This document shows, piece after piece, positions 1 through 34,389 of a stretch of 64,000 bases of DNA. The translations under genes and the position numbers were made by a program. Every line of letters begins with the position of its first letter. Position 1 is the first letter of the stretch. The notes beneath the pieces are model-generated. The model was not told the origin of the DNA and searched no databases. It saw only the letters and a program-made list of their open reading frames with translations. Source of the stretch: a virus (lineage: Duplodnaviria; Heunggongvirae; Uroviricota; Caudoviricetes); the IMG/VR virus record IMGVR_UViG_3300042293_000433; one strand, written 5' to 3'.

Positions 1-432
1 ATATCCACGTGTTGCGTATATGTGGTCTCTTACCCCATTCTCATTAATCATATGATTTACTATTACCCAACTATTTAAATTTGTTGAATACATATCTAAT
101 CTATGAAAATATGCTGGTAATTCTAATAACAATAGTAACTTATCTTTTTTATCCCAATTTCGTTTTACAAAATCAAAAGCTTCTCTAACTGCTCTACCAG
201 TTCCGCCACCACTCGCTGCTTTGTTTTCTACCTTACATCCCAACATATCTGCCAATCTACTAGCATATGTAACTTCTAATGTGTTATCCCACCATACATT
301 ATATTTTTCTTTATAAACATCACGTACTAATGTTACCTTATCATCTGCATATTTAATAGTTTCTAATCCGCCACCCGCACTATGTGAACATCCGGTTGCA
401 AATACTATTTCTATGTTATGTTTATTTGTCAT
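1..432 (-). CDS. SGNH/GDSL-like hydrolase family paralog (partial, C-terminus beyond window start)
   Basis: Manual translation from ATG at 432-430 gives MTNKHNIEIVFATGCSHSAGGG..., matching the GCSHSAG block-I motif of the paralogs at 2682..3476; no stop before position 1; start overlaps stop of 429..641 (ATGA). Confidence 0.5.
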   Translation of the reverse strand, partial: MTNKHNIEIVFATGCSHSAGGGLETIKYADDKVTLVRDVYKEKYNVWWDNTLEVTYASRLADMLGCKVENKAASGGGTGRAVREAFDFVKRNWDKKDKLLLLLELPAYFHRLDMYSTNLNSWVIVNHMINENGVRDHIYATRGY

Positions 433-641
433 ATGAATTTTTTACACCTTTCGATTGATTCGTTTTCTGCTCTTGCTTTTGCTCTATACATTATTCTAAC
501 AATAGCACCTAATTGTTCATCGGTTAAATCATCATCTAATATTATTTCTTTACGAATTAATAATGTTTCTTTAGCTTCCTCTGCCCATGCTATTATTTCT
601 TTTGCGTAATGTTTTTCCATATTAATTAAACCATTTATCAA
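429..641 (-). CDS. hypothetical protein
   Basis: 70-aa ORF in same-strand tightly packed array; stop overlaps next start. Confidence 0.4.
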   Translation of the reverse strand: MINGLINMEKHYAKEIIAWAEEAKETLLIRKEIILDDDLTDEQLGAIVRIMYRAKARAENESIERCKKFI

Positions 642-837
642 ATTCAGTTGGCTCTGGTCTGTCTACTTTATTTGTGGGTGTTTTCTTTTTAGGTGTTTGT
701 TTCTTTACAATAGTGGGATTTAATTCTGCTTTTAATTGAATTTTCTCTCTCATTGTTAAATCGGTCATTCTATGATATTGTTTTAAATCCAATGCCGAGT
801 CAACTATGTAATATCCATCCTTATCTTGCTTCAACAT
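622..837 (-). CDS. hypothetical protein (Lys/Pro-rich C-terminus)
   Basis: 71-aa ORF, minus-strand array. Confidence 0.4.
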   Translation of the reverse strand: MLKQDKDGYYIVDSALDLKQYHRMTDLTMREKIQLKAELNPTIVKKQTPKKKTPTNKVDRPEPTEFDKWFN

Positions 838-1102
838 TGCTTTCAGTTTTAATCATTTGTTTATGTATTCTCGCTGCTACTTCATACCATTCATTTGTTA
901 CACATACTTCTAACATATCGGGTAACATGCTTTCATCAAACTCTAATTCGTTTTGCTCATCAGTATTTTTTTCGTATAACTCAATAAGTTCATCCATCAC
1001 ACCTTCCATAAACTCACTATCCTTTAATGTGTTTATAAGTTGCTGCATAAATAACTTTCTTATCTCACCATCTCCTTTGTGCTTATCACGTCTGCTTTTC
1101 AT
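821..1102 (-). CDS. hypothetical protein
   Basis: 93-aa ORF, acidic, minus-strand array. Confidence 0.4.
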   Translation of the reverse strand: MKSRRDKHKGDGEIRKLFMQQLINTLKDSEFMEGVMDELIELYEKNTDEQNELEFDESMLPDMLEVCVTNEWYEVAARIHKQMIKTESNVEAR

Positions 1103-1103
1103 A

Positions 1104-1658
1104 TTAGTTATTGGTTGTATCGGTTAAAGGAACTATTGATTGTCTATTTGCATCACCATCACTTATAACTCTGATTGAATTGATTTCAGCTAAATCCGTT
1201 AAAGTGACCTTTTCTATATTAATACCCCACTCTTTAACTTTAGCACCAATTGTTTTTGTTAGTTCAACTTCAATATCAACCAGGTCTTCCCAATTCCTTT
1301 CCTCAATAATTTCTCTAATCATTGCACCGGTTGTATCTACTAATACATCAGTTGGGTGTGCTAACTTAGTTAAGAATAAATATGCATCTTCAATATCATA
1401 TCTAACAATTGCTCTTACTACTATGTTTCTATAATCTAATGATGTGATTGATTGTGGATGTAAATGTATTGATTGTGTTACAACGGTTTGATGCCATATT
1501 GAATCTACAAATGGTATTTTCCAATGTAGACCTGGATCTTTTATATCATTAAACTTACCAAATCTTAACACCAATGCTTTTTCCCACATATCCACTACAA
1601 ATACGGGCATTATTGAATGTCCAAATTGTTGTATTACTGCTATTAATTTATCAAACAT
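1104..1658 (-). CDS. SPFH/band-7 (stomatin/prohibitin-like) domain protein
   Basis: 184 aa; ALVLRFGKF...PGLHWKIPFVDSI...RAIVRYDIEDAYLF pattern typical of SPFH domain; TCGTATCTTTA motif 15 nt upstream. Confidence 0.6.
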   Translation of the reverse strand: MFDKLIAVIQQFGHSIMPVFVVDMWEKALVLRFGKFNDIKDPGLHWKIPFVDSIWHQTVVTQSIHLHPQSITSLDYRNIVVRAIVRYDIEDAYLFLTKLAHPTDVLVDTTGAMIREIIEERNWEDLVDIEVELTKTIGAKVKEWGINIEKVTLTDLAEINSIRVISDGDANRQSIVPLTDTTNN

Positions 1659-1672
1659 ATTCTTATTTTATA

Positions 1673-1683
1673 TAAAGATACGA
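1673..1683 (-). promoter_or_regulatory. conserved upstream motif TCGTATCTTTA (sense), candidate promoter element
   Basis: plus-strand taaagatacga; 15 nt upstream of ATG of 1104..1658; same motif recurs upstream of at least 7 other genes. Confidence 0.4.
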
Positions 1684-1776
1684 TAAATTTATGAGAATAC
1701 CAAATCCTATTGAGATTTTCTATTCTTAGCTTTTACATCAATAGTGCCTTTGGTATTAGTTTTACCAACTGAATTA

Positions 1777-2046
1777 TTAGCTACTACCTTGTTCTGCTTC
1801 TTCTTGTCCGACTTCATTATGTTCTGCAATAGGATGTCCTTTTGACTCATTGATTTGCTCATATTCTAAATCTTGTATTGTTTCTAAAAATATATAATCG
1901 TTGGATGTTTTAGGTCTTACTATGTAATCTGCTCCATAATATTCTTTTGCCAATTCCAAATCGTTTATTCGTTCACCATTGATTGTTTTTTTAACGATAT
2001 ATAATTTATCATTAAACCGCATCAATTGTCTATTGAATTGAAACAT
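1777..2046 (-). CDS. hypothetical protein
   Basis: 89-aa ORF. Confidence 0.4.
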   Translation of the reverse strand: MFQFNRQLMRFNDKLYIVKKTINGERINDLELAKEYYGADYIVRPKTSNDYIFLETIQDLEYEQINESKGHPIAEHNEVGQEEAEQGSS

Positions 2047-2047
2047 A

Positions 2048-2251
2048 TTATTTAGATTTTGTTTCTTTTGCTTTTTGCTCTGCTAAATAATCACCTAATA
2101 CTTTACTACCTCTCTTAGTAGTCATTAATTCTTTTTGTGAAACTCTTATACCATTACGATATACTCTTAATTCTAGCTCCTCACCATTTTTTAACATAAA
2201 GAAATGATATTCAGGCTTAAAGAATTGCTTTATTTTTCTAAATATATTCAT
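2048..2251 (-). CDS. hypothetical protein
   Basis: 67-aa ORF, basic. Confidence 0.35.
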   Translation of the reverse strand: MNIFRKIKQFFKPEYHFFMLKNGEELELRVYRNGIRVSQKELMTTKRGSKVLGDYLAEQKAKETKSK

Positions 2252-2281
2252 AGTTTAAATATACAATAAGTTATCCATTAT

Positions 2282-2320
2282 ACCAAACAAAAATAGGGGT
2301 ATTTTTTAATTACCCCTATT
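2282..2320 (-). terminator. rho-independent terminator (minus strand)
   Basis: 9-bp perfect stem ataggggta/tacccctat (2293-2301/2311-2319) followed on minus-strand RNA by UUUUUGUUUGG; lies just downstream of the 3' end of CDS 2343..2678. Confidence 0.5.
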
Positions 2321-2342
2321 ATTTAATATAAAATATATAATA

Positions 2343-2678
2343 TTATTCTGCTACTTCTTCTGTAATTTCCACAACTGGTCCAACACCTGTCTCATGTACA
2401 TCTTCAGGTGCAATACCATTCACATCTTTATCCCAAACAAAACAATATCCAGGGTTTGCTACTGATGCTGCTGATGCTTTTACTTTATCATTTGGAGTGA
2501 TAACTAAGTATCTGTCGGTTTCAAACTCATCCATACTTAACACATCTGCTGTGAATATAGTACCATCTTCATTTACTAATGTAACACCAACTTGTCCAGC
2601 TTGAAATAATGCTTCGTTTGCATCTGATAATTCTCTGAATCCAGCGTATTTAACTTCTCTTGTTATTAATTCTGACAT
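2343..2678 (-). CDS. hypothetical protein
   Basis: 111-aa ORF, acidic. Confidence 0.45.
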   Translation of the reverse strand: MSELITREVKYAGFRELSDANEALFQAGQVGVTLVNEDGTIFTADVLSMDEFETDRYLVITPNDKVKASAASVANPGYCFVWDKDVNGIAPEDVHETGVGPVVEITEEVAE

Positions 2679-2681
2679 TTT

Positions 2682-3476
2682 TTAATCTCCGTTTTCTTTT
2701 ATATAAGTATTATGATTTATGTAATTAAGTATGTTTTTGGCTATAAATTTATGTCCAATTTCTCCAAAATGTGAATCTTTTACTATCTTAGTAGTTTCAA
2801 ATTCAATAATTAAATCAGTATTCCAATCTATATGATTACTACATTCATATGCTGTTTCTACAATACCTCTATCACATTCAAATTTAATTAAATTAGGAAA
2901 ATCTAATATAGTTGTATTTTCTTTTATACACTGCTCTATATTTGGATAACTCCATAAAAATACATTCTTAGTTATATTACTTTTAATGTAATTTAATAGT
3001 GATAATATCATTACAACTGAATTTATTGATATCCAATCTTCAAAATCTAAGTGTGCCATATAAAATTGGCGGTATTTATCATTATCATATTTTAAACCAC
3101 CACCTGCTTGAAATGCAGTAGTTTCCCATTTTCCGTCATCATTTTTATATGGAACTTCGAATCTATGATAATGTGTTAATTGAAATAATATAACATCATT
3201 TTCTTTTATGTTCGGTAAATCTTTTAATAACTTTTTAAATTGTTGAGAATTACTATCACCACCTTCGGCTCTTAATATCCAATCCAATTTCAATTCATCT
3301 GCTATTATTTCAAAAAATGGTATTCCCTTTCTACCCAACCATTTGGTATATTCGGTTTCCATAAAATTAATGTCATCTTTTATTCTTGGTAATCCTGGAT
3401 CTTCAAAATGTGAATAACCTAATAGATTGCCGGCACTATGTGAACATCCATATATGTATAACTTATCCATTTTCAA
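2682..3476 (-). CDS. SGNH/GDSL-like hydrolase family paralog
   Basis: 264 aa; N-terminal LYIYGCSHSAGN (block I GxSxxxG-like) and C-terminal DSHFGEIGH (block V DxxH). Confidence 0.55.
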   Translation of the reverse strand: MKMDKLYIYGCSHSAGNLLGYSHFEDPGLPRIKDDINFMETEYTKWLGRKGIPFFEIIADELKLDWILRAEGGDSNSQQFKKLLKDLPNIKENDVILFQLTHYHRFEVPYKNDDGKWETTAFQAGGGLKYDNDKYRQFYMAHLDFEDWISINSVVMILSLLNYIKSNITKNVFLWSYPNIEQCIKENTTILDFPNLIKFECDRGIVETAYECSNHIDWNTDLIIEFETTKIVKDSHFGEIGHKFIAKNILNYINHNTYIKENGD

Positions 3477-4188
3477 AATGTTTTATTATATAATCTGCCC
3501 AAAGTTTATGACCAGGTTCACCAAAGTGTCCATCTGGAATGGTATTGTTTGTTTCTTGTGCTAATGCCATTTTATTATCATACATAAAAGAACTAAATTT
3601 AGTGTATTTATCTGGCATTAAAAATATATTTGCATCATCTACTTCTATTAAATCGTTATCATGTGTCCATACACACACATTATCACATACTGAATTTAAT
3701 AAATACTTTATTGCTTTAATTTCTCGAATTAATCTATCTTTGAATACTTTATTATTTCTATTTAGTATCACTCCTAATAATCCACTTTTGCTTAATCCAT
3801 ACATTTCAAATACATCATCCGGTGTTGTTGATATGCTACCTATATTAGTTGGTTGTAATACGTCATTTATTAGTATATCAAATCTTTCAAAGTAAGATAT
3901 TCCAATTATAATATAATCATTTTTATTTATATCTTTTATATGTGCAAATACACTATCAAATATCATTTCATTTGATGCACCACCTCTAGCCGTATTAACT
4001 AATTCTAAATTGAAATGGTTAGACACATAATCAGGATAGATTAGAATTTCTTCTCCATCCTGTTTATTTAAATATTTTCTATATGAAAGTGTGGTCGGTG
4101 AATATGGGTTTTCTTTAGGTGAACGAATACACCCATCACCTGCGGTAAAAGAATCACCGAAACACCATAATTTATTTTGTGTAACCAT
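3463..4188 (-). CDS. SGNH/GDSL hydrolase family paralog
   Basis: 241 aa; canonical GDSFTAGDG near N-terminus, DGHFGEPGH near C-terminus. Confidence 0.65.
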   Translation of the reverse strand: MVTQNKLWCFGDSFTAGDGCIRSPKENPYSPTTLSYRKYLNKQDGEEILIYPDYVSNHFNLELVNTARGGASNEMIFDSVFAHIKDINKNDYIIIGISYFERFDILINDVLQPTNIGSISTTPDDVFEMYGLSKSGLLGVILNRNNKVFKDRLIREIKAIKYLLNSVCDNVCVWTHDNDLIEVDDANIFLMPDKYTKFSSFMYDNKMALAQETNNTIPDGHFGEPGHKLWADYIIKHFENG

Positions 4189-4205
4189 TATTTAGTATTA
4201 ATATA

Positions 4206-4553
4206 CTACCATTCAATCAACTTAGCAATAGGCCATGCTGGATTTGAAATACTTACTAAATGTGCTTCTTCTACTAATCTTTCTTTTAATTCATCATCTT
4301 CGATGTCTAAAAAATTAACATGTTCGTATTTCACTAATTCGTCTTCAGCAATTGTTATTGTTGAAAATGTATTATCTTTATTTAATACAATAAGTCCAAA
4401 TAATTTTGCTTCTACTAATTCTACATTTCCAGCGTGCTCTAAAAATGGTTCAAATGCTTCTAAATTTATCATTTTGTTTTGTTTTATATAAATATATGTT
4501 TTTATTATTACAATGTAACTACACCACGTTTTTGTACAACTTTTGTTGCACAA
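4206..4553 (-). CDS. hypothetical protein
   Basis: 115-aa ORF. Confidence 0.4.
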   Translation of the reverse strand: MCNKSCTKTWCSYIVIIKTYIYIKQNKMINLEAFEPFLEHAGNVELVEAKLFGLIVLNKDNTFSTITIAEDELVKYEHVNFLDIEDDELKERLVEEAHLVSISNPAWPIAKLIEW

Positions 4554-5239
4554 TCATTTGCGTATTCAATACTAACTTCTATACTTTTTGTTTTTAAATA
4601 ACTAATTACTAATGAAGCCATAAAGGTATCACCTGCACCACTCAAATCTCTAACCTCAATATCGTTGTTAACCGGATATGTAATACCATCATACATTGCA
4701 CCTCGTTCACTCATTGTTATAATTAATCTTTCTCGCCACATTTCGTATTCCTGTCCTTTACAATTTTCCCACTCAACTTCATTTATCTTAATGAATGTAT
4801 AATTACGCATTTCTGCTGATAATGGTTTCTTTGTATCTATAAAAGTTAATGGATGTGAATCACTAATCAATTTCAAATCTGATAATGATAGAAATCCTTT
4901 GTCATAATCACTTACAATAACTGCATCATAATCATTGAATGGAACTCTTTTAACATCAAATGAATTGCTAACCTTATCATTACTGTCAATTCTGATAATC
5001 ATATGATTTGCTTTTTCCTCTACATATCTAGTCTTTGTAATTTGTTCTTTGTTAGTAACCAACTCAACTTTCTCAGCTCCCAACGATTTAAGATTAGCTA
5101 CTACATTACCACTCATACCCATATTGGTAATTGTTCTACTCGGTTCAAATATTGGCACAGGTCCTTCGGGACATAATCTTTTACAATAACCATATACAAA
5201 TACATCAGTACAACTATCACCGATAACTAAAACTTTCAT
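4508..5239 (-). CDS. hldA: D-glycero-beta-D-manno-heptose-7-phosphate kinase (HldE domain I / HldA-like, PfkB fold)
   Basis: 243 aa; VLVIGDSCTDVFVYG..RLCPEGPVPIF, GMSGNVVANLKSLGA, VIVSDYDKG, DLSGAGDTFMASL align by eye to E. coli HldE N-domain blocks (VVGDVMLDRYWYG..ISPEAPVPVV, GGAANVA, LSDYAKG, GAGDT). Confidence 0.8.
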   Translation of the reverse strand: MKVLVIGDSCTDVFVYGYCKRLCPEGPVPIFEPSRTITNMGMSGNVVANLKSLGAEKVELVTNKEQITKTRYVEEKANHMIIRIDSNDKVSNSFDVKRVPFNDYDAVIVSDYDKGFLSLSDLKLISDSHPLTFIDTKKPLSAEMRNYTFIKINEVEWENCKGQEYEMWRERLIITMSERGAMYDGITYPVNNDIEVRDLSGAGDTFMASLVISYLKTKSIEVSIEYANDCATKVVQKRGVVTL

Positions 5240-5907
5240 AATAACGATTTCCTATAAGTATTAATATATTCAAAAAAATGATTAGCCATTCGTTGATGTC
5301 CTAACTCATTAAAATGTTTATCAATATTACCATTCGGTTCTATAATATGTTGTTCCTCTAATTGGTCTTGCCACTTTGTATAAAACGAATAGTTTGTAAA
5401 TTCGTTTGTTGAATTGGGTGCCGGAATAAAGTTTATAATTTCTTTATATTTTTTAAAATCTGAATGGGTTTGTCCTTCCGCACTCCAATAGTAAATTGGT
5501 ATTTTATTTTTAATGCACCAATCATTTACCTGTTTCTTAAACCATTTGTAATTAACATTTCGCATTTCTATTAAATTATCTGCAAATGTTCCATGATGTT
5601 TTATAAAGTATGCCTCCAAATCTATTAATTGTGCTTTTGTTGGATAAATATTATACCTATCAAAAAATGTAAATTCAAATACAACCTTATCACCTGGTTG
5701 AATTTCATCTCGCCTATCTATGAATTGCAATATAGATACCCAATTACATTGTCCAGGATGTGCACTATTTACTAATTCTAAATCTAATTTATCCGCTAAT
5801 ACATACGGCCAACTAATTCTTAATTTATCTTCATCCAGTGGGTCAACTAAATTCATTCCAGTTGAAAATGAACATCCAAATACCCAAAGTTTATTTTTCA
5901 TTATCAT
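5236..5907 (-). CDS. SGNH/GDSL-like hydrolase family paralog
   Basis: 223 aa; KLWVFGCSFSTGMNL and DKHFNELGH; same architecture as 3463..4188. Confidence 0.55.
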   Translation of the reverse strand: MIMKNKLWVFGCSFSTGMNLVDPLDEDKLRISWPYVLADKLDLELVNSAHPGQCNWVSILQFIDRRDEIQPGDKVVFEFTFFDRYNIYPTKAQLIDLEAYFIKHHGTFADNLIEMRNVNYKWFKKQVNDWCIKNKIPIYYWSAEGQTHSDFKKYKEIINFIPAPNSTNEFTNYSFYTKWQDQLEEQHIIEPNGNIDKHFNELGHQRMANHFFEYINTYRKSLL

Positions 5908-6043
5908 TCCAATTTAAAAAATCTTCACCTTTGTAATCGGGATGATTTTCTTTCATATAGTCAATACCTCTTACCCAAAAAAATGAAACGATTGCAGCCA
6001 TTATAAAGCTGCAACCGATTCCTATTACATAACTCATTATCAT
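5891..6043 (-). CDS. small hydrophobic protein (50 aa)
   Basis: Manual translation MIMSYVIGIGCSFIMAAIVSFFWVRGIDYMKENHPDYK...; one predicted TM; fills the gap between two genes. Confidence 0.25.
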   Translation of the reverse strand: MIMSYVIGIGCSFIMAAIVSFFWVRGIDYMKENHPDYKGEDFLNWNDNEK

Positions 6044-6046
6044 ATA

Positions 6047-6757
6047 TTATTCTTTTATTTCTATTGAACTCCAATCATTTGTTTCACTGTCCCATATCCA
6101 AATAGGATTAGCTAATACATAACGAATGTTTAATAACGATGCATTCAAACTTATCATACCTTCTAGCGGCACTTCGGTTTCCTCTTTAATCATTCCACCA
6201 CATTCATGTATGTGTCCAAATACGTGGACCTTAGGGTGTATGTCGTTGATTCTATTGGCTAACATTTCACATCCAACATGGTAGTTGCCTCTTACACTTA
6301 CATCAAATCTACCATATCTCGGTGTATGTGTCACTAACAAATCTACACTTCCGTCCGTTGGAACTTTTTGCCATACTTCATCTAACTCTGCGTTTCTTTG
6401 TTTCATAAATGCCCACATACCGAATACAGGAGACCATGGGCTACCATAGATACCTAATCCATCAATGTTTATAAAACTATCTTCTAAATAGGTAACTCCA
6501 TAATTGTTTGCTAATAACCAATTACGCCTATCGGTTTGCTGTAACACAAAATCATGATTACCCGCTACTAATACTTTATGTTTTGCATTTTGTTTGCTAA
6601 ACCAATTCATAAATAAATCGGTTTCTTCAAACTCACCATAACGAGTACAATCCCCACTATGCACAATAATATCTACATAGGGTAACTCACCATATAATTC
6701 AGTAATCTCAAGATGTCTACCATGAGTGTCACTTAAAAACATTATTTTCATAACCAA
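6047..6757 (-). CDS. calcineurin-like metallophosphoesterase
   Basis: 236 aa; ordered MPP motifs LSDTHGRH (DxH), HSGDCTRYG (GD), AGNHD (GNHD), GHIHE (GH). Confidence 0.75.
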   Translation of the reverse strand: MVMKIMFLSDTHGRHLEITELYGELPYVDIIVHSGDCTRYGEFEETDLFMNWFSKQNAKHKVLVAGNHDFVLQQTDRRNWLLANNYGVTYLEDSFINIDGLGIYGSPWSPVFGMWAFMKQRNAELDEVWQKVPTDGSVDLLVTHTPRYGRFDVSVRGNYHVGCEMLANRINDIHPKVHVFGHIHECGGMIKEETEVPLEGMISLNASLLNIRYVLANPIWIWDSETNDWSSIEIKE

Positions 6758-7886
6758 TTAATTTATCTATTTCTAATATTGTATTTGTAGGATTAAAACT
6801 ATCCATTATAAACTTATAATTCTTTTCTAATCTTTGTTGAACACTATCCGATTCATATATTGCCTTAACTTTATCAATTGATAATTCATTGATTCGTTTT
6901 AAAGCATCTACAAATAGTTCTATTCTTTGTGTTTCCGTTTTATTATCATCCCAACCAATTTCTAATCCAAATACATCTTCAAATGTTTCTATTCCATATT
7001 GTCTCAATGCTGAGTTAAATCCATTACATTGTAAAGATAAGAATATATTTTTACATAACCAAGATCTAATTGTTTTTTCTGTTAATCTTAAATCATCCCC
7101 ACTATCACCACTGCTCTCAATAGTAAATGAAATATATGAATCTAATGAGTTTGTATTGATACTATCATACATATCATTTGTATCTGAACTTTGTATTTGT
7201 CCTAATGCTACCGCATCTTTGTTCTCATATATAAAAAACTCATTTACAAATTGATTTAAGTATTCGATATCAATTACTAAATCATCATTACCACTACGTC
7301 CCCCACCAGGTCTATTTCTATAATTAATAAAATCTTCTATTGTAGAGAGATTACCAAACGTATCTTTTTTTATTATATTACCAAAGGTATAATAACATTC
7401 GTTTAATTCAATACCTTTTTTTTTGAGCAATTCAAATATTTTAAGTCTTCGTAAATTTATAGACCTATTAAAGAAATTAAACTTCTTTGTTCTATTATTG
7501 TTTGGTATATATGCTACTTTTGAAAACAAGTTTGTAAATGGATAACATCTATTTTTAAATGATATATCATTTTCAATACTATACACATCTAAATGCGTTG
7601 TTAAGAAATATATAGTATGATTTGTATTTCTATTTTCTACAATTGCTTTACGCCTATGTTCATTACAATATTCATGTTTAATAAACAAAAATATATTTAA
7701 TTTTAAATTTGGATTTACTGATTCATTTATCTTATCGATTGTATCTAATGTAATAAATAATACATCATTATCTTTAAGATTATCAATAAAACTAAAATCA
7801 TTATATTGTAATTCTATAAGATTATACCCAATTGATTCAAAATATTTAAAGTCTAAACCATAAATAGAATCGTAATAAAATGTCAT
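6729..7886 (-). CDS. GT10-like (alpha-1,3-fucosyltransferase family) glycosyltransferase paralog
   Basis: 385 aa; FTIESS...LTEKTIRSWLCKNIFLSL resembles FucT motif FENS....YxTEK(L/F)W; shares this plus FNFFNR..RLKIFELL block with 22263..23360 and 23353..24609. Confidence 0.4.
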   Translation of the reverse strand: MTFYYDSIYGLDFKYFESIGYNLIELQYNDFSFIDNLKDNDVLFITLDTIDKINESVNPNLKLNIFLFIKHEYCNEHRRKAIVENRNTNHTIYFLTTHLDVYSIENDISFKNRCYPFTNLFSKVAYIPNNNRTKKFNFFNRSINLRRLKIFELLKKKGIELNECYYTFGNIIKKDTFGNLSTIEDFINYRNRPGGGRSGNDDLVIDIEYLNQFVNEFFIYENKDAVALGQIQSSDTNDMYDSINTNSLDSYISFTIESSGDSGDDLRLTEKTIRSWLCKNIFLSLQCNGFNSALRQYGIETFEDVFGLEIGWDDNKTETQRIELFVDALKRINELSIDKVKAIYESDSVQQRLEKNYKFIMDSFNPTNTILEIDKLIGYENNVFK

Positions 7887-7887
7887 T

Positions 7888-8085
7888 TTATATTTTTAAA
7901 TCTTTAATCGTATCAACTATATCTGCTTCATCTTTATATATTTCATATACCTTATCCAATGCGTCATTATAGGCCACTTCTGCTATTTTATGTGCATCAT
8001 CTAATTTAATATACGAAAATGTATCACCATCTTTGTTTTTAAGCGAAAGGAAGCCAGTTGCTTTTAATTTGTTTTCCCATTTCAT
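7888..8085 (-). CDS. hypothetical protein
   Basis: 65-aa ORF. Confidence 0.35.
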   Translation of the reverse strand: MKWENKLKATGFLSLKNKDGDTFSYIKLDDAHKIAEVAYNDALDKVYEIYKDEADIVDTIKDLKI

Positions 8086-8263: not shown

Positions 8264-9469
8264 TTATTCAAATGTATTTGTTACTAAATTATATTTCCAT
8301 CGGTGCACTTTACCATTTACAATTATACCATCTAAATAATAAACATTATCTTTCTGATATAAATTTAATTTAAACATCCATGCTTTTGAATTGGTTTGAT
8401 AGGTTGTGATATTGGTTTCTTTGAACGTTTTATAGTTATCAGTTGTTTTATAAACATTTAATTGAAATCCATTATACCAATTAGTGCCACTATCAATTGT
8501 TCTATTTAATAGAATTTCCGTTGTACCATCATTATCAATATCCGCTGCTACAATATCCAATACTAATGCCCATCCATTTGAATTAGGTTCACAAATAATT
8601 GTATTGTTACTAAACTCATTATTGTTATTCCAAAATATAGTAGATTTAGAATATCTATTTGAATTTGGAAATCCCTCAAATCCAGTCATTATAATATCGG
8701 GTTGTGTATCTTTATTTACATCCAATATTTCAATTGTTATATAACCAGAAGTTCCATTATATTTCCAATCAGTTGCATTAAAACTACCATCACCACTACC
8801 ATATAAAACTTTAATATAATTACCTGCGGTTACAACAATATCAATGTTTCCATCTTTATTTAGGTCACCACTTGCACCACCATGCCAAAACTTTTTGCCA
8901 ATATCAGGTAATGTTCCTAATTTATATTTGCCTGTTTTTTTGTCACTCAATAACAATGTGTTTGTTTCACCTGGCCAATAATTATTATCTTCAAATCCAT
9001 GATTGATTAAAAATAAATCCGGCAAGCTATCATTATTAAAATCACCTACAATTGTTTTACGGGTGTTTTGATTACCATTATACTCTAATGGAAGCATACT
9101 ATTATCTTTTGTATAAGAGTTGCCATTATTAATAAACACATCCGGTTTTGTATTAAATTCACCATCTGAACTATATGGATAAAATATGTCTTCTCTACCA
9201 TCGTTATTCATATCCACATATACAAATCCCAAATTATTAGTTCCATTATATCTACCTATATTTTTAATGCCAAATGTATTTCTAAGTGAATCAATACTAA
9301 TAAATTTATTAGTATTTTTTAATTCATATGAGGTTTTGCCATAATATACAATTTTAGGTAATTCCGTTGGTATTATTGGTGTAACTACAATTGGTTTAAC
9401 GATTATTGGTGCAGTTTTAGAACATCCAAATAAGGTCACTACGATTAATGCTAATATAATTTTTTTCAT
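8264..9469 (-). CDS. lipoprotein with FG-GAP/VCBS-type repeats
   Basis: 401 aa; signal plus lipobox LFGCSK; repeated DxNxDGxxD(I/L) segments (DMNNDGREDIF, DFNNDSLPDLF, GDLNKDGNIDIVV, DVNKDTQPDIIM, DIDNDGTTEILL). Confidence 0.55.
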   Translation of the reverse strand: MKKIILALIVVTLFGCSKTAPIIVKPIVVTPIIPTELPKIVYYGKTSYELKNTNKFISIDSLRNTFGIKNIGRYNGTNNLGFVYVDMNNDGREDIFYPYSSDGEFNTKPDVFINNGNSYTKDNSMLPLEYNGNQNTRKTIVGDFNNDSLPDLFLINHGFEDNNYWPGETNTLLLSDKKTGKYKLGTLPDIGKKFWHGGASGDLNKDGNIDIVVTAGNYIKVLYGSGDGSFNATDWKYNGTSGYITIEILDVNKDTQPDIIMTGFEGFPNSNRYSKSTIFWNNNNEFSNNTIICEPNSNGWALVLDIVAADIDNDGTTEILLNRTIDSGTNWYNGFQLNVYKTTDNYKTFKETNITTYQTNSKAWMFKLNLYQKDNVYYLDGIIVNGKVHRWKYNLVTNTFE

Positions 9470-9472: not shown

Positions 9473-9823
9473 TTAATTTTTAACAAATAACTGAATACCT
9501 ACTATTATAAATCCCAATGCTAAACACAATCCATTCTTTAAACTTAATGGCTCTTTGAATAGATAGTGTGACATCAATGTAAATATAATTACACCGATAC
9601 CAAATCCTAACAAACGGGAAGGCCATATCTGCCCACCAAACCCAGCTATGAATGAGTTTACACTTTGTATGTAAACCCATCCTAGTGGTAATGATGCTAA
9701 TATAACCAACCATTGATACTTCTCATACCAACCATATTTGTAACTACCTTGTAATTGTAAGAATGTACCAATCTGTCCTAAGATACCAAATAAGATACCT
9801 ATGATTATTTTATTATAATTCAT
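9473..9823 (-). CDS. small 4-TM membrane protein (paralog of 38261..38605)
   Basis: 116 aa, four hydrophobic segments; shared motif GFGGQIWPSRLLGF vs GFAGSMWSNRFLFF; overlapping ORF 9480..9713 treated as artefact. Confidence 0.5.
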   Translation of the reverse strand: MNYNKIIIGILFGILGQIGTFLQLQGSYKYGWYEKYQWLVILASLPLGWVYIQSVNSFIAGFGGQIWPSRLLGFGIGVIIFTLMSHYLFKEPLSLKNGLCLALGFIIVGIQLFVKN

Positions 9824-10971: not shown

Positions 10972-11277
10972 TTATTTGTTTGTTATTATATCGTAATCGT
11001 ACACTATTTCATTTAAGAATTTAATAAAACTAAATGGGTCAACCAATGTTTTAGAATCTATATCATATCTAATTGATTTACCACCATCTACTGCTAATCG
11101 TCCTTTAAATTTGTTTTTATCAAATTCATCTCTATCAAGTGTATATGAACAATCATTATCATAATTTTCATGTACAAAATTAAATCTATAAAAATCAGGT
11201 TCAGTTTGTATTTTCTTTATCTCAACCTGCATTGCATTGATTGGATATAACTTATCTATGTTTTTTATTGTTAGCAT
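10972..11277 (-). CDS. MLTIKNI-family small protein (paralog 1)
   Basis: 101 aa; N-terminus MLTIKNIDKL; DNA at start identical over ~22 nt to 12859..13182. Confidence 0.5.
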   Translation of the reverse strand: MLTIKNIDKLYPINAMQVEIKKIQTEPDFYRFNFVHENYDNDCSYTLDRDEFDKNKFKGRLAVDGGKSIRYDIDSKTLVDPFSFIKFLNEIVYDYDIITNK

Positions 11278-11278
11278 A

Positions 11279-11596
11279 TTATCTTACTTTTATTGGTTTT
11301 CTATATTTTTCTATTAAATAAATTATATCCGATATCAGTATTGATTTATTTTCCACAATAGTATTGGAAATCTTAAAGTATTTTGTTGGACTATATCTTA
11401 TACTATATTTACCCCCATCACGTTCTTTCATCAAGTCAATTCGGAAATATCTATTAATATCCGTATCTAAAACTGCAAATGAATATGAATTGGTAAAATC
11501 CTTAACTGAATGTATTTTATATTTGCCCAGTACTTCACCTATTACTTTATCTATATTGTGTATCTTTAGCATATTATTCGTATTCGTTTCTGTCAA
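11279..11596 (-). CDS. MLTIKNI-family small protein (paralog 2, N-extended)
   Basis: 105 aa; internal MLKIHNIDKVIG after a 9-aa extension. Confidence 0.45.
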   Translation of the reverse strand: MTETNTNNMLKIHNIDKVIGEVLGKYKIHSVKDFTNSYSFAVLDTDINRYFRIDLMKERDGGKYSIRYSPTKYFKISNTIVENKSILISDIIYLIEKYRKPIKVR

Positions 11597-12713
11597 TATT
11601 AATTACATATGGAAAACGGGGTATACCATCAGGTGTTAAATTAAAATACTTAATCGTTGCTTGCTTACCGATTAGTTTCTTTTTACTCTTTAACATCTCA
11701 GCCGTTTCATCCCAAGTTCCTTTTACATTTGATTTGAAAGGTTTACCATCAATCGTTTCAAATACCATATAACCAGCAGTTCCAGTTCTATTACCTTCAC
11801 CCTCTACGATATCTAAAATAGTATATTCATCATCAACAAACGATTTATGTTTTAATAAGTTCTTACTTCGTTTGTTTTCATACTTACCATTCGTTCTTAA
11901 CATCTGACCTTCGTAACCTTTCTCTACATACCCACCATATAATTCCATAACTTCATCTTCATTATCAACTTTATATGTTTGTACTATTCTACAATACTTA
12001 CCTACTTGTGAAAATGTTTCAAATAGTATTCCTAAATCATACATTCTTTTTACAAAGTTATTATCTGAACTAGGTAAATCGTATATGTGATACTCTATAC
12101 TTTTTTCACTTTCAATTAAATCCTCTTTAGTTGGTTTTGTTTTTTTAACCAAAGATACAATCTTATTGAAATCATTAGCGAACTTATCGGCATATAACTC
12201 ACCATCTAATATCAAATCAGGATTCATTACAAATACATGCCATAAGCTATACATGATATGTTGCGCTGAAAGAATAGGTTTACCATTTCTGCTAAACATA
12301 CCATCTTTTGTCACTATACAACGAATACCATCTAACTTAGCTTGCGAATAAATTGGATATGTAACCTTATCTTTACTATCTTCCCATTTAGCGGCTAACA
12401 TTGGTTCAAAGTATTGTGTTTTGTTTATGTGTTTGATATTCTCAAAGTAACCACTCTCTAACTTCTTTGTTCGTTTAGCTACCGCCTCTGCCATCGTTTG
12501 TTCTTTATCCGTAGTTTCATTTGCTCTACCAATATTCTTACCATAACAAATTGTCCACTCATTCGTAGTAATAGCACCGCCAACTTGTCCACTATGGGTT
12601 CGGTATTTATTACCTACTACTTCAATTGTCCATTCTTGCGTTGCACCGGTCTTTGTTTTTTTGTAAATAGTTTCTAATTTCATATTATAAATTTTTGTTA
12701 TATTAGGAGTCAT
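11574..12713 (-). CDS. lig: ATP-dependent DNA ligase
   Basis: 379 aa; adenylation motif I KLDGIRCIV (KxDG), YEGQMLR and downstream nucleotidyltransferase/OB-like blocks; true start may be the second ATG (12683) because the first 30 nt belong to a duplicated leader. Confidence 0.85.
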   Translation of the reverse strand: MTPNITKIYNMKLETIYKKTKTGATQEWTIEVVGNKYRTHSGQVGGAITTNEWTICYGKNIGRANETTDKEQTMAEAVAKRTKKLESGYFENIKHINKTQYFEPMLAAKWEDSKDKVTYPIYSQAKLDGIRCIVTKDGMFSRNGKPILSAQHIMYSLWHVFVMNPDLILDGELYADKFANDFNKIVSLVKKTKPTKEDLIESEKSIEYHIYDLPSSDNNFVKRMYDLGILFETFSQVGKYCRIVQTYKVDNEDEVMELYGGYVEKGYEGQMLRTNGKYENKRSKNLLKHKSFVDDEYTILDIVEGEGNRTGTAGYMVFETIDGKPFKSNVKGTWDETAEMLKSKKKLIGKQATIKYFNLTPDGIPRFPYVINIDRNEYE

Positions 12714-12753
12714 TCTCTCGACTCAATACATAAAGATACGACTTTATATTGGA
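12681..12753 (-). repeat. 73-bp duplicated 5' leader (copy A; copy B at 21569..21641)
   Basis: 70/73 identical to 21569..21641; sense strand ends exactly at an ATG and contains TCGTATCTTTA plus a GAGTC/GACTC inverted repeat. Confidence 0.8.
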
Positions 12754-12790
12754 TTGGCAATGCCCTAAGTGAACTAATTTTGAAAGTTTT

Positions 12791-12812
12791 TATTGGGAAT
12801 CAACGAGTTACG
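12791..12812 (-). promoter_or_regulatory. operator-like palindromic element (variant copy)
   Basis: plus-strand tattgggaatcaacgagttacg; matches 22-bp consensus cattgaTaatcaatTagttaRg at 16/22 (three length-conserved, weaker variant copies exist). Confidence 0.35.
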
Positions 12813-12858
12813 CCAATATAACCCTAACATATTAGGTATTTTTAATATATGATACCTA

Positions 12859-13182
12859 TTATTTAAAATTATAGTTATCCAATTTTGCCAAACATTTAGT
12901 TATCATAACTGCCAAATCGGCTGCACTTCTAACATCTGAATTATCTATTTCGACTTCGGTAGCTGCTGCCCATCCCATAACATATAGTTTATAATTACCT
13001 TGTGGTTTTTTATCTCTGTCTAAATAAACTTCACAATCCGGTTTGCCCGCACCATCATCTTTAAATACAAATACATAAGAATCATAATTCATTCTTTGAT
13101 TATGTAGATTATAAAATTCTTTTATGGTTCGGCTATTACACGTATAACCAACCATTTTTTCTATGTTTTTTATTGTTAGCAT
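12859..13182 (-). CDS. MLTIKNI-family small protein (paralog 3)
   Basis: 107 aa; MLTIKNIEKM. Confidence 0.5.
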   Translation of the reverse strand: MLTIKNIEKMVGYTCNSRTIKEFYNLHNQRMNYDSYVFVFKDDGAGKPDCEVYLDRDKKPQGNYKLYVMGWAAATEVEIDNSDVRSAADLAVMITKCLAKLDNYNFK

Positions 13183-13183
13183 G

Positions 13184-13483
13184 TTATATTAATTCATCTA
13201 TTAAAAATCGGATAAAGATATCTCTATCCCCTATACTCTCTATTGGTAGGTAGTGTCTATTACCTGTCTCTTGGCAATACATAAGATAATCACCATTGGA
13301 TGTCTTAACCCTACCAATGCTAAAGTTAAACATATCAAAGGGTGAGCCATTATGTACTACTTTAATAAGATAGTTATCCTTCGACTTAGTCACATAGTGT
13401 ATCTTCCAATGGCCAACGTATGTCCCCGTAAGAGAATCTATGTTTTTTATTGTAAGCATATTATAATTTTTCAAGTTTAGCAA
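13184..13483 (-). CDS. MLTIKNI-family small protein (paralog 4, N-extended)
   Basis: 99 aa; MLNLKNYNMLTIKNIDSL: the motif occurs twice; DNA around second Met near-identical to paralogs 1 and 3. Confidence 0.45.
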   Translation of the reverse strand: MLNLKNYNMLTIKNIDSLTGTYVGHWKIHYVTKSKDNYLIKVVHNGSPFDMFNFSIGRVKTSNGDYLMYCQETGNRHYLPIESIGDRDIFIRFLIDELI

Positions 13484-13724
13484 TTACATCCATTACATCT
13501 TCGGGTCTTAAATAACCAAGTACATCATTCGTAATCGGCGTATCGTAACATATTTCACCATCTTTGAAAATAGCTAATTCATACAATCCGATATCACCAC
13601 CATACGAGTGCGGACTTTGTACTACTGATACTTCATATCCATTATCTAATTTAGTTCTACTTACAATACCAAAATCAGCACCCATAGGGTTTGTTTTAAA
13701 TTCAATATCTTTAAATGTTTTCAT
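13461..13724 (-). CDS. hypothetical protein
   Basis: 87-aa ORF. Confidence 0.4.
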   Translation of the reverse strand: MKTFKDIEFKTNPMGADFGIVSRTKLDNGYEVSVVQSPHSYGGDIGLYELAIFKDGEICYDTPITNDVLGYLRPEDVMDVIAKLEKL

Positions 13725-13777
13725 AATTTGTTTTATTTAATCTATAAAGGTAGTTAATTTTTCTGATACTACCAAAT

Positions 13778-14128
13778 CTATTTATATGCTTTAATAGGTT
13801 TAATTTTCATTTGCCAATTATTGTTACCCGCCATTTGGCATATCATATAACCAAACCAATCTTTGTTTTTAATACAATTCAAAGTCACTTCGGTTCTTAA
13901 ATGAGATGCGTGTGTTTGATACATAACATAGTTACCACTATATTTTGCACTACTATCCCTTAATAAAGTAAATCCAATATAATCTTGTATTGTTCCATTT
14001 CCTTTTGTCAATGAAACTGTTATTGCATACTTTTCCGTACCTTCGTTTATATCCTCAATAGATAATGTATAACCATCACATTCAATATAATCACCTTTAA
14101 GTTCATTATAGTTTTTAATATTTAACAT
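13778..14128 (-). CDS. MLTIKNI-family small protein (paralog 5, divergent)
   Basis: 116 aa; MLNIKNYNELKG. Confidence 0.4.
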   Translation of the reverse strand: MLNIKNYNELKGDYIECDGYTLSIEDINEGTEKYAITVSLTKGNGTIQDYIGFTLLRDSSAKYSGNYVMYQTHASHLRTEVTLNCIKNKDWFGYMICQMAGNNNWQMKIKPIKAYK

Positions 14129-22266: not shown

Positions 22267-23360
22267 AGTTGTATGTTTTTTAAATAACGAATTAATGTAT
22301 TTCTATTGTGTTCAAATTCTTCAAAGTTATCATAATAAATACTATGTAAATCGGAGTATGATAAACTAGCAAATTCATTTACCTTAGTATTAAATGCATC
22401 TAAATCATATCCCATATTATTACAATGATACAAAGGACATTCAAATGAAAATCCAAAGTATTTACTAAATTGTTCCAATGTATTTTCAGGTCCCCAAAAA
22501 CTAAATGGATTCATAAACATTAATGGTTTATAAATCTTTTCTGAATAGTGTAGTATATTACTTCTATCTGCGTATGGATGTACGGGTGTACGTGAACTAA
22601 ATCCTTCCGTTATAATTTCAAAGTAAGTATTATGAAAATGCGTTACGTTTGTATTTTGTGGTTGAAAGTAAACAGGATTTGCTATATGTTTAATATCATT
22701 TTCAAATACATAATTTGCATTGTTATCACCATCTAATTCTATTGGTAATACTTTATATGCATCTGATTTTAAAATATATTCCATATCCGAATTACTCACA
22801 TCATACATTCTACTATCAAACTTGTCATTAGCCAATGTCCAATTAAAACTAACTAAACCATCATCTAAATTATTATTGTTGTATAATGATTCAAATATTT
22901 TGAACCTTTCAGTTCTCATATGATGATTAAGAAACAAATATTTCTTTAATCGTTTTTTAGTTCTTAATACATCCCATTGTATAAATTTGTTTGATTGTGT
23001 AAACCCATCTTTTGTAAAGTTGTCTGCTAATTGTAAGGCGTGTAATGGAAAAAATACATGCGATTTGAATTGACAATTGAGTATGTTTACCGTCAGTATT
23101 TTAAGATTAAACCCACTCAACTCTGCTTCTAATCGTTTATAGGTATTTACATCAATATAACTTTCAGTAGAAATAAAATCTAAATATACGTTTTCAATGT
23201 TTTGTTTTTTTATGAATAATCCAATACGTTCAATTTTAGGACGAGATGAATCTTCCATTATACTTAATACTAAACATTCTTTTGTAGGTTTTATATAACC
23301 ACACGGTAAATGGTCATATTCTACAAACTCTTTATTCTCATATCTAAAATATTTATTCAA
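22263..23360 (-). CDS. GT10-like glycosyltransferase paralog
   Basis: 365 aa; FEIITEG...YSEKIYKPLMFMNPFSFWG and KKYLFLNHHMRTERFKIFESL blocks shared with 6729..7886. Confidence 0.4.
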   Translation of the reverse strand: MNKYFRYENKEFVEYDHLPCGYIKPTKECLVLSIMEDSSRPKIERIGLFIKKQNIENVYLDFISTESYIDVNTYKRLEAELSGFNLKILTVNILNCQFKSHVFFPLHALQLADNFTKDGFTQSNKFIQWDVLRTKKRLKKYLFLNHHMRTERFKIFESLYNNNNLDDGLVSFNWTLANDKFDSRMYDVSNSDMEYILKSDAYKVLPIELDGDNNANYVFENDIKHIANPVYFQPQNTNVTHFHNTYFEIITEGFSSRTPVHPYADRSNILHYSEKIYKPLMFMNPFSFWGPENTLEQFSKYFGFSFECPLYHCNNMGYDLDAFNTKVNEFASLSYSDLHSIYYDNFEEFEHNRNTLIRYLKNIQL

Positions 23361-24609
23361 CTGAAAACAATTTTATAGTATTAATCTTTTCTTTCTCTAT
23401 TAGTTTAACTAAAACATGATAGTTGTACTCACAATTAAAATAAGTTTCATCAACCAGTTCTCTTAACGTTTCTATATCCATACTTGCTAATTCATCCAAT
23501 ATCTTTAAAAATTTAGCAAACCTTCTTTTATAAAATATAGCCTTTGCGTTATCCTCATGTCTAACTTCATCCATTATCTCATAAAATTCGGTAGTATCAT
23601 CTAATATACTTGCATCATATAATTGTGGGAACAACTTAAATCCATATTCCTCTAATCCTTTATAGATACCCGCACTACCAAATATCAAAAATGGTTTCTT
23701 ACATACGATAGGTCTAAATGCCTTCTCAGTTAGTGAACAAAAATCAACCGGGTCACTTAGCGTTTCTATTACTAAATCAATTAATGCGTTATTATTCTTT
23801 TCAAAGTTTACCCACTTACAATTGTAATAGTGTCCACCTTCTAATTCATTTTGAAATACTCTAACAGGAAATTGAAATGAATCATCTATATCATCCAATA
23901 GTTTTTTATTACCATCTCGTTCTCTCTCTGAATATGTGATATACTTTTTACCATCATCCCAATGTCTAAAAAAGAAAGTTGCTTCACACTTACTTAACAT
24001 CCTATTATCTAATAAGTGTTTGTATAAGTGCATTCTTGCTTCTCTCGGTTGGTTGTTAGTAGTATAGAAATGTTTTTGTGCATTTGAACTATTAACTACA
24101 ATATTTTCTGCTTCTATTTTCTCTATATTGTTTTCCAAAAAGTAAGGTAAACATCCTAAGTTATAGATTACATTTATATTTTCCCAATCATGCGACCAAT
24201 TCTTTGATGCGATACTAATAAATACCTTATCAATTTGGTCACCGAAAAAACGATTAAGGTGAAATACCAATTCAGGTACAGGACCACCGACAGTAAGAAA
24301 GTCCATATCCTCACCATAGAATATGAACTTCTTTATAACACCAGTCCTAAGTTTGTCTAAAATTTCTTTTGATTTCTCTAATTGTAAGAAACCAGGTATT
24401 GCAGATGAAATTGATTCAGTATAGAACATACAATAAACTTCATCATCCTCTACAAATTTTATATCACCATACTTTTGTACGCTGAATATAAATTGTTTCA
24501 TATGTCCTTGTCTAATATAATTGTTTTGACCTTCCTCTGAATAGAAGTCTAAATCAATAACACCCCAATTGGATTTATATTCTGTAAACTTAATTTTAAT
24601 CTCTTGCAT
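23353..24609 (-). CDS. GT10-like glycosyltransferase paralog
   Basis: 418 aa; VIETLS..CSLTEKAFRPIVCKKPFLIFG resembles FENS...TEK fucosyltransferase motif. Confidence 0.4.
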   Translation of the reverse strand: MQEIKIKFTEYKSNWGVIDLDFYSEEGQNNYIRQGHMKQFIFSVQKYGDIKFVEDDEVYCMFYTESISSAIPGFLQLEKSKEILDKLRTGVIKKFIFYGEDMDFLTVGGPVPELVFHLNRFFGDQIDKVFISIASKNWSHDWENINVIYNLGCLPYFLENNIEKIEAENIVVNSSNAQKHFYTTNNQPREARMHLYKHLLDNRMLSKCEATFFFRHWDDGKKYITYSERERDGNKKLLDDIDDSFQFPVRVFQNELEGGHYYNCKWVNFEKNNNALIDLVIETLSDPVDFCSLTEKAFRPIVCKKPFLIFGSAGIYKGLEEYGFKLFPQLYDASILDDTTEFYEIMDEVRHEDNAKAIFYKRRFAKFLKILDELASMDIETLRELVDETYFNCEYNYHVLVKLIEKEKINTIKLFSVE

Positions 24610-33712: not shown

Positions 33713-34030
33713 TTATTGATTTTCCAAATATTTTAACCCAAAAAATGCGTAATTATCGATAACTGATTGACGCTCACCCATTTGTATAGCTATTTCCTCA
33801 CTAGAAACAATGGCATCAACGGGACATTCCGGTAAACAAGCACTACAATCTATACATTCTATTGGATTTATGTATAATTGTTTACCTTTCTTATCCTCAT
33901 CACTCATTCCAATCGATTCTAATCCCATTCCTGTCGTATTTATCGGTCCATGTATACAATCCATAGGACAAACTTTTAAACACCCACCATCGATACAACT
34001 GATACAACTAGACGTAATTATAAAACTCAT
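33713..34030 (-). CDS. 2x[4Fe-4S] dicluster ferredoxin-like protein
   Basis: 105 aa; CISCIDGGCLKVCP and CIDCSACLPECP (two CxxCxxCxxxCP motifs). Confidence 0.7.
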   Translation of the reverse strand: MSFIITSSCISCIDGGCLKVCPMDCIHGPINTTGMGLESIGMSDEDKKGKQLYINPIECIDCSACLPECPVDAIVSSEEIAIQMGERQSVIDNYAFFGLKYLENQ

Positions 34031-34389
34031 AATATATCACCTTTGTATATTCTATAACTATCTGAATCAAAATGTTCCGTACTTACTTCAAATACTTCAC
34101 CATCTTCTAATGCTATCAATTGATGTGGTTGTCCTGGATATTGAGTAACTACATCTCCTACCTTTAAAGTAGTTTCTTCGGTAATCCCTCGTTCAGTATC
34201 TATCCATTTGTAAATAAAACTACCTTTGTTTACATACCAAGTTTCTTGTTTCAACATATGATAATGCATAGAGAACTTACATCCTTCTTTAAACACTAAT
34301 ACTTTTCCACAATATTTTTCATCATTGTAGATTATTAATTCATGTCCCCAACCTTTTGGTATTTTACAACACTCCGTTACCTTTGCCAT
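34027..34389 (-). CDS. cupin-domain protein
   Basis: 120 aa; GHELIIYN...HYHMLKQETWYV...GQPHQL pattern of cupin motifs 1 and 2. Confidence 0.5.
   Translation of the reverse strand: MAKVTECCKIPKGWGHELIIYNDEKYCGKVLVFKEGCKFSMHYHMLKQETWYVNKGSFIYKWIDTERGITEETTLKVGDVVTQYPGQPHQLIALEDGEVFEVSTEHFDSDSYRIYKGDIL

Follow-up and report, generated by a model that had tools for sequence, protein, structure and literature searches.

Enzymes of the SGNH/GDSL superfamily (PF00657, PF13472), among them alr1529 (1vjg), the CE3 esterase 2vpt and TAP/TesA, adopt a three-layer α/β/α fold with a catalytic serine in a G-x-S-x-x-x-G turn, a Block II glycine and a His/Asp loop preceding the C-terminal helix. The serine lies after the first β-strand and the histidine before the last helix (PMC9487903), while the residue in front of the serine is normally Asp, Asn or Gln, and is Thr in AlgJ/AlgX (PMC10792757). 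The O-acetyltransferases AlgX and AlgJ carry a D-x-H Block V and a GTSYS Block I and have lost the Block III Asn, a residue that is also lost or masked in other SGNH transferases (PMC9487903). Phages encode SGNH catalytic modules as well, for example in the deacetylases G7C gp63.1 (4qnl) and SFP21A Gp09 (9lna), virion-fiber proteins of 600-850 aa of which the SGNH module makes up one part. Here we analyze seven SGNH genes, designated A to G (Table 1), in a 64,000-nucleotide stretch of the IMG/VR virus record IMGVR_UViG_3300042293_000433 (Caudoviricetes), referred to below as the window. They encode proteins that, at roughly even confidence, we read as small, leaderless, single-domain SGNH enzymes tailoring acyl groups on glycan or sugar intermediates made by the virus itself.

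Membership of these paralogs in the SGNH/GDSL superfamily, proposed in a preliminary description of the window, is borne out by the fold and by the conserved Ser, His and Asp. Structural models of C and F both display the three-layer α/β/α arrangement around a five-stranded parallel sheet, with the conserved Ser placed directly after strand 1 (E6-12, then S13, in C; E59-65, then S67, in F) and the conserved His in the loop before the C-terminal helix. Across 37 sequences drawn from six subfamilies, the invariant columns are just G11, S13, R102, D219 and H221 (C numbering), with G17 and G70 nearly invariant, and in 141 distant cluster representatives conservation at these positions is 90% or more. 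The Gly-x-Ser block recognized earlier is present in all seven copies and invariant in every subfamily alignment, and the catalytic Ser, His and Asp, on whose conservation the preliminary description had made its proposal depend, are conserved across the copies. In Block II, the Gly does not vary within the A, B, C, E and F families but does so in the G family. One tandem copy on a distantly related 97-kb viral contig (L008:12027-12704) has exchanged both its Ser and its first His for Asn and kept the rest, a joint loss that is expected of a functional pair.

Sequence models reach this family only below their thresholds. The gathering thresholds of Lipase_GDSL and Lipase_GDSL_2 were approached by C (23.2 versus 23.6 bits) and missed by F (16.3 versus 32.9 bits), and the other copies gave no hit; sub-threshold matches to GDSL-type Pfam models are nonetheless consistent, occurring in 24 of 26 C-family and 19 of 26 F-family members. 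PHROGs and NCBIfam yielded nothing useful for the seven proteins, and searches of PDB sequences with the C- and F-family profiles returned nothing significant, the best F match being the CE3 esterase 2vpt at E 0.11.

The copies have diverged far from one another. Pairwise identities are just 20-29%, and BLASTP within the window connects B with C (1e-9), C with D (7e-8), B with D (1e-3) and A with E (2e-3), leaving F and G without a link. Such values would also suit unrelated genes that share short G-x-S and D-x-H motifs by chance in AT-rich open reading frames (ORFs). Profile comparisons dispose of this explanation for A-E and G, and for the set as a whole its probability is negligible. Homologs were gathered from a metagenome protein collection and one alignment was made per subfamily (A2 for C, A3 for G, A4 for F, A5 for A, A7 for E and A8 for B). 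A hidden Markov model (HMM) of the C family, built without any other window copy, retrieved B (6.5e-19), D (8e-13), E (2e-5), A (0.0025) and G (0.0064) from the window ORFs, the next ORF scoring 0.14; independent subfamily HMMs likewise recover the other copies without picking up any further window ORF. With hhalign, C matches A (97.2% probability, E 2.9e-11) and G (96.5%, E 9.6e-10) over the full length, as E does A (93.7%, E 1.9e-7). The match between C and F (72%, E 3.4e-5) covers Blocks II-V only and is the weaker link, yet the model of F, independent of that of C, has the same fold, and F shares the R-x-[D/E] motif common to most copies, in the form R-x-E. Profile comparison thus places A, B, C, D, E and G in one family with F as a more distant sister, and on these comparisons the seven are related beyond chance.

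The seven intervals of the preliminary description are genuine ORFs, all on the minus strand. Its count of eight paralogs is one too high: seven were listed, and subfamily HMMs run against the window's 146 ORFs with a length of 70 aa or more brought out no eighth. The PfkB kinase gene between D and C, whose product begins MKVLVIGDSCTD and has a GDS-like look (VIGDSCTD), is not a family member and may have been miscounted as the eighth copy. Nor does the 267-aa ORF overlapping the end of E show similarity to the SGNH copies. This ORF, of unassigned function, is present in the near-identical contigs L002 and L003 and absent from L001 and L004, and is a presence/absence polymorphism adjoining the SGNH pair; its SNKCGSRF stretch is loosely like what we take to be the 3'-phosphoadenosine 5'-phosphosulfate (PAPS)-binding loop of sulfotransferases, a tentative likeness.

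Table 1. Positions, strands and characteristics of the SGNH paralogs and other features of the window
Feature	Position	Strand	Characteristics
Paralog A	1..432	-	N-terminal 144 aa; TGCSHSAG (Block I), SGGGTGR (Block II), then ...HRLD
Paralog B	2682..3476	-	264 aa from TTG or 262 aa from ATG at 3470; GCSHSAG, GGDSN, R-F-E, D-S-H-F-G-E-I-G-H
Paralog C	3463..4188	-	241 aa; most canonical copy; GDSFTAG (Ser13), G70/N73, S98...R102-F-D104, D219-G-H221...H227
PfkB-type sugar kinase	4508..5239	-	between D and C; Pfam PfkB 1.7e-12
Paralog D	5236..5907	-	223 aa; GCSFSTG, PGQCN, R-Y-N, D-K-H-F-N-E-L-G-H
Terminator-like hairpin	5989..6017	-	11 pairs, 6 G-C, T-run; consensus scan
385-aa protein	6729..7886	-	function unassigned; 0.8 kb upstream of D
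FG-GAP repeat protein	8264..9469
MoxR/CbbQ-type AAA+ ATPase	28430..29662	-	AAA_5 9e-19
714-aa protein	29838..31982	-	matches 'cobalamin biosynthesis protein' PHROG
WbuC-like cupin	34027..34389		overlaps the cytidylyl/adenylyltransferase gene
Cytidylyl/adenylyltransferase	34364..34780	-	rfaE_dom_II (heptose-1-phosphate adenylyltransferase, HldE domain II) 7e-36, below cut-off
267-aa ORF	38606..39409	-	function unassigned; overlaps end of E
Paralog E	39399..40247	-	282 aa; NGCSFMWG, YGGSLQR, R-R-E, D-E-H, without second His
Paralog F	40237..40998	-	253 aa; GDSHTEG, GFGGRSND, R-K-E, canonical D-I-K-H; extra conserved N-terminal ~60 aa (SGSD...YNELGFRGD)
Weak HAD-like match	41037..41861		between F and G
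Paralog G	42807..43649	-	280 aa; GTSFTHG, SGSSN, N-x-x-R-D-F, D-D-S-H-P-N-F-E-A-H
Glycosyltransferase cluster	45725..51813	-	five genes, begins 2 kb from G; Pfam, also on identical/related contigs
GT2-type	45725..46843, 46840..47487, 47966..48592	-
GT1/GT4-type	49117..50406, 50410..51813	-
TonB-dependent-receptor-like gene	57829..60108	-	Plug + OMP_b-brl_3, 4.7e-26

Unlike the superfamily norm, the copies lack the Asn of the Block III G-x-N-D motif, which is replaced by Ser (C), Thr (B, D, F and G) or Pro (A and E). They instead have an invariant Arg four residues downstream of that position; in five copies, F among them, this Arg opens an R-x-[D/E] motif, and the two exceptions are D (R-Y-N) and G (R-D-F). 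A conserved Asn three residues past the Block II Gly (G-x-S-N) might substitute for the missing Block III residue. A D-x-x-H block near the C-terminus, ascribed to every copy in the preliminary description, is confined to F; the other six place the Asp at His-2, giving DLH in A (read from its orthologs), DSH in B, DGH in C, DKH in D, DEH in E and DDSH in G, the last with an extra Asp at His-3. Block V of the F family as a whole is [D/E/H]-x-x-H with an invariant His, and in most families a second invariant His follows six residues past Block V. The individual alignments agree with this scheme: G8, C9, S10, G71, R103, D232 and H234 are invariant in the B family, G81, S83, R116, D257 and H259 in the E family, and G8, S10, G14, R111, D247, H249 and H255 in the G family. 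The A gene runs off the window; its full-length orthologs, of which P0044 is 92% identical, have about 275 aa and end in a D-L-H-P-G-Y-F-x-H block.

The residue preceding the Ser is likewise broader than is usual in the superfamily, with Cys, Ser, Thr and Ala occurring as well as Asp. It is fixed as Cys in the B family and as Asp in the C family, and is Asp or Cys among F orthologs, Cys or Ser among A orthologs and Thr or Ala among G orthologs. Because it varies inside orthologous groups of 55-70% identity, a change from Asp to Cys or Thr, once taken as a sign of sub-functionalization, cannot by itself mark it.

Several of these traits recur in known transferases. AlgX/AlgJ and the DHHW (PatB1) O-acetyltransferases also have D-x-H instead of D-x-x-H and lack the Block III Asn (PMC9487903, PMC10792757), and the G-T-S Block I of copy G is close to the GTSYS of AlgX. 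AlgX and AlgJ, however, are circularly permuted, with the D-x-H before the Ser, and periplasmic, whereas the window copies run from Ser to D-x-H and have no leader; AlgX-like D-x-H spacing and Block III Asn loss thus also occur in a non-permuted SGNH topology. Since both are O-acetyltransferase traits, transfer would be at least as likely as hydrolysis, and the AlgX-like motifs make acyl transfer a credible activity. In either case, because each copy keeps the Ser, the Block II Gly and the His/Asp pair, the usual mechanism is expected, in which the Ser would attack an ester or thioester to form an acyl-enzyme whose acyl group would then go either to water, as in an esterase, or to a hydroxyl acceptor, as in an acyltransferase. 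The copies differ from one another in their variable central 'cap' region, and they are therefore likely to differ in substrate or position specificity as well. A more specific proposal, which we hold to be unlikely, is that this non-permuted S...G...R...D-x-H clade comprises soluble, cytoplasmic acyltransferases rather than esterases, several of them regiospecific, that together decorate a phage-encoded, possibly heptose-containing glycan, for instance on the virion or on the envelope of the infected cell; the Arg would then take the place of the Block III Asn in or near the oxyanion or substrate site, and the acylation would proceed with neither an MBOAT nor an AT3 partner.

Each window copy has its own orthologous group. 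For D, the metagenome protein homology search gave none, and its orthologs were found in IMG/VR and JGI loci (89% identity in L006, 64% in L007 and 61% in L023). The first cluster, in the order D, PfkB, C, B ... A, is syntenic in the IMG/VR contig L006 at 87-94% identity and partly so in L007 at 42-64%. The 240-kb JGI contig L023 reads FG-GAP protein, 378-aa protein, metallophosphoesterase, D (61%), PfkB, B (49%), Band_7 and A (58%), so that the PfkB gene again comes directly after D; it has no C, and copy number therefore varies among relatives. The second cluster, in the order glycosyltransferase cluster, DUF3008, DUF5856, G ... F, E, is kept in identical and near-identical contigs and in the relative L024, whose E is 67% identical. 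Both the D-PfkB linkage and that of the glycosyltransferase cluster with G, F and E persist in relatives of 50-67% identity. Ratios of nonsynonymous to synonymous substitution rates (dN/dS) against the L006 orthologs are 0.08 for A, 0.10 for B, 0.21 for C and 0.16 for D, and that of G against L001 is 0.07; values against the L007 orthologs are unreliable, as synonymous sites are near saturation. Given separate orthologs, conserved gene order and purifying selection, the duplications are old and each copy is maintained.

Other viral contigs have arrays of their own: L008 has five copies in tandem and L009 has four. The L008 array occupies 10010-13545, and its member with the Ser-to-Asn and His-to-Asn changes is predicted to be catalytically dead. 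Directly after it, at 13535-17333, comes a tandem series of ORFs (about 170-200 aa each) that includes at least two 2OG-Fe(II) oxygenases. L008 and the window also share an FG-GAP repeat protein.

Two further explanations are improbable. Amide or peptide hydrolysis, or largely non-catalytic binding with some copies as pseudoenzymes, has a fold-level precedent in CgnD (8a2n), an SGNH-fold protein of the crocagin pathway that slowly cleaves a leader peptide within a gene cluster for a peptide that is made on the ribosome and modified after translation (RiPP) and that F resembles. The match between F and CgnD is by fold only, with 14% identity; the substrate of CgnD is a peptide, RiPP-type genes were not seen near the window copies, and Ser, His and Asp are kept in all seven and in nearly all orthologs, so that this explanation is highly improbable. 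Scarcely more probable is the view that the copies are virion-borne, receptor-destroying esterases, each stripping O-acetyl groups from a different host surface polysaccharide, which the preliminary description had offered as a host-range or serotype toolkit. G7C gp63.1 and SFP21A Gp09 show that phages do carry SGNH modules in virion fibers, but the window proteins, at 223-282 aa, consist of the SGNH core throughout, lack a multi-domain virion-fiber architecture with its particle-binding N-terminus, and stand free in a metabolic neighborhood away from recognizable structural genes. Tail-fiber SGNH modules rank just 37-50 in the structure comparison, no closer than any esterase, no PHROG tail match falls below E 0.06 for the seven proteins, and the copies behave as stable orthologs rather than exchangeable cassettes. 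The toolkit proposal is thus unsupported.

What points to glycans is where the genes lie: a glycan role is proposed because the copies sit among heptose-kinase-like, heptose-adenylyltransferase-like and glycosyltransferase genes. The best NCBIfam model for the PfkB product is rfaE_dom_I (heptose-7-phosphate kinase, HldE domain I; 1e-33, below cut-off), and the two HldE-like halves are separate genes 29 kb apart. The PfkB start and the D stop overlap by 4 nt, and B begins 8-14 nt before C ends. Of the terminator-like hairpins in the region, the strongest stands just upstream of D, between it and a metallophosphoesterase gene; it suggests that D, PfkB, C and B form one transcription unit. In a hydropathy scan none of the seven proteins has a signal, a hydrophobic N-terminus or a transmembrane segment, so they are most simply cytoplasmic enzymes of the infected cell. 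There, the copies would acylate or de-acylate the sugar-nucleotide or glycan intermediates of a virus-encoded pathway.

A fusion adds to this context. Nine metagenomic representatives of 647-702 aa join an N-terminal SGNH domain of the copies' family to a roughly 380-aa C-terminal domain, which is homologous to the 385-aa protein encoded upstream of D (hhalign 86%, E 5e-6, 223 columns). The latter has a paralog in the window at 23353..24609 (minus strand; BLASTP 6.6e-6), and neither it nor the fused domain has a Pfam or PDB sequence match. An E(S/T)...(S/T)EK pattern hints that both are GT10-like (fucosyltransferase-type) glycosyltransferases; a PDB profile search was negative, and the lead is tentative.

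Action on lipids is the other function to be weighed against these neighbors. Lipolytic enzymes or thioesterases of the lysophospholipase/TesA kind could act on host lipids or on acyl-CoA/ACP, serving membrane remodeling, lysis or carbon scavenging, with no relation to the glycan genes. The structural neighbors of the C and F models are not diagnostic of substrate, as CE2, CE3 and CE16 carbohydrate esterases and PatB/OatA score similarly. The translational coupling of D to a sugar kinase and the linkage of G, F and E to the glycosyltransferase cluster across relatives speak against a lipid role, and seven maintained specificities are harder to explain by bulk lipid hydrolysis; we accordingly give this alternative a minor share of the probability.

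Acyl editing of virus-made glycans is a plausible and the best-supported reading, fitting the gene context. Several observations weigh against it. The link to glycans, plausible as it is, draws on gene neighborhood and one fusion; the kinase and adenylyltransferase matches fall below equivalog cut-offs, 'heptose' being just the nearest model; and no window copy attains a curated Pfam or NCBIfam threshold. By hydropathy, no ORF of the 64-kb window has more than three predicted transmembrane segments, and there is no membrane partner of MBOAT or AT3 size, so that, unlike in the MBOAT/AT3-SGNH systems (PatA/PatB, OatA, AlgI/J/X), a polytopic partner is absent from the window, as is an extracytoplasmic SGNH domain. 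The L008 array, finally, stands beside 2OG-Fe(II) oxygenases, with no glycosyltransferase among the ten neighbors scanned. Virus-encoded glycosylation is known from giant viruses and a few phages. If acyl editing holds, an uncultivated phage-like lineage with genomes of about 250 kb would have a multi-enzyme system of its own that acylates or de-acylates glycans of its own synthesis, and virus-encoded glycosylation would be extended to tailoring chemistry.

The copies represent a much larger group. When 1.84 billion cluster representatives (50% identity) were searched exhaustively by profile, the family numbered 9,266 at E <= 1e-3, 2,605 at E <= 1e-10 and 105 at E <= 1e-30, and the sampled clusters all consist of metagenomic 'hypothetical proteins'. 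Among the 141 best new representatives, 25 match DUF6071 (best 8e-13), seven Lipase_GDSL and three Lipase_GDSL_2, the rest matching nothing at 1e-3. Foldseek comparison of the C model with predicted viral structures gave 38 matches at E <= 1e-3, mostly small 'uncultured Caudovirales phage' proteins, a few of them labeled SGNH_hydrolase. Pattern scans of GTDB genomes for the C and E families found no cellular relative, although the patterns are narrow and this is weak evidence of absence. The copies are part of a large SGNH branch, metagenomic and virus-associated as far as sampled.

The nearest Pfam family, and the curated model matched most often, is the uncharacterized DUF6071 (PF19547). It is matched by 17 of 19 E-family members (best 2e-6) and nine of 26 F-family members, and is reached by the relatives P0236 and P0238 (precomputed) and P0242 (27.0 bits). 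The window copy of E, at 17.1 bits, stays below the threshold of 27 bits, and A, B, C, D and G have no match. No mention of DUF6071 was found in the literature searched, so the family adds no functional information. The signature G-x-S, G, R, D-x-H now defines a family most of whose members escape Pfam and some of which overlap DUF6071. SGNH enzymes are common and versatile, so the family is no surprise in kind; its uses lie in annotating viral dark matter and in supplying esterases or acyltransferases.

The source element has a phage-like gene organization. The window has about 30% G+C and a strongly negative GC skew all along, and nearly all its long ORFs lie on the minus strand, densely packed with frequent overlaps of a few bases. 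Its relatives comprise IMG/VR viral contigs and metagenomic contigs of up to about 249 kb, and few of the genes match PHROGs. Within the 64 kb no hallmark structural genes were identified, and the source is for that reason only presumptively a large uncultivated phage. Against GenBank phages, blastn (word 11) of positions 1..8000 and tblastn of C, F and a 533-aa ORF gave no match. Scans for sigma-70 promoters found fewer sites than in shuffled sequence and are uninformative.

Duplicated genes are common in the source genome and not peculiar to the SGNH family. Other small paralog sets (BLASTP 1e-6 to 7e-3) include 10972/12859 and 11279/13184/13778 within 10972..14128 (minus strand), 60832/61202 within 60832..61546 (minus strand), and the small membrane proteins 9473..9823 and 38261..38605 (minus strand).

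Outer-membrane receptor genes are unusual in phage-like genomes. The TonB-dependent-receptor-like gene of the window sits within a run of ORFs with hydrophobic N-termini (53012..62451; ORFs at 53012, 54613, 55819, 60832, 61202 and 61546), and the relative L024 carries at 13847-17125 a 1092-aa CarboxypepD_reg + OMP_b-brl_4 (SusC-like) gene. These TonB-dependent receptor genes, present in both the window and L024, are of Bacteroidota type and hint that the host belongs to the Bacteroidota. Elsewhere in the window, the MoxR/CbbQ-type AAA+ ATPase gene adjoins that of the 714-aa protein, and the pair resembles CobS/CobT as found in cyanophages. All tblastn phage matches of the ATPase are distant (<=51%), the best, at about 51% identity, being to an uncultured 484-kb phage and Microcystis phage Mel-JY01.

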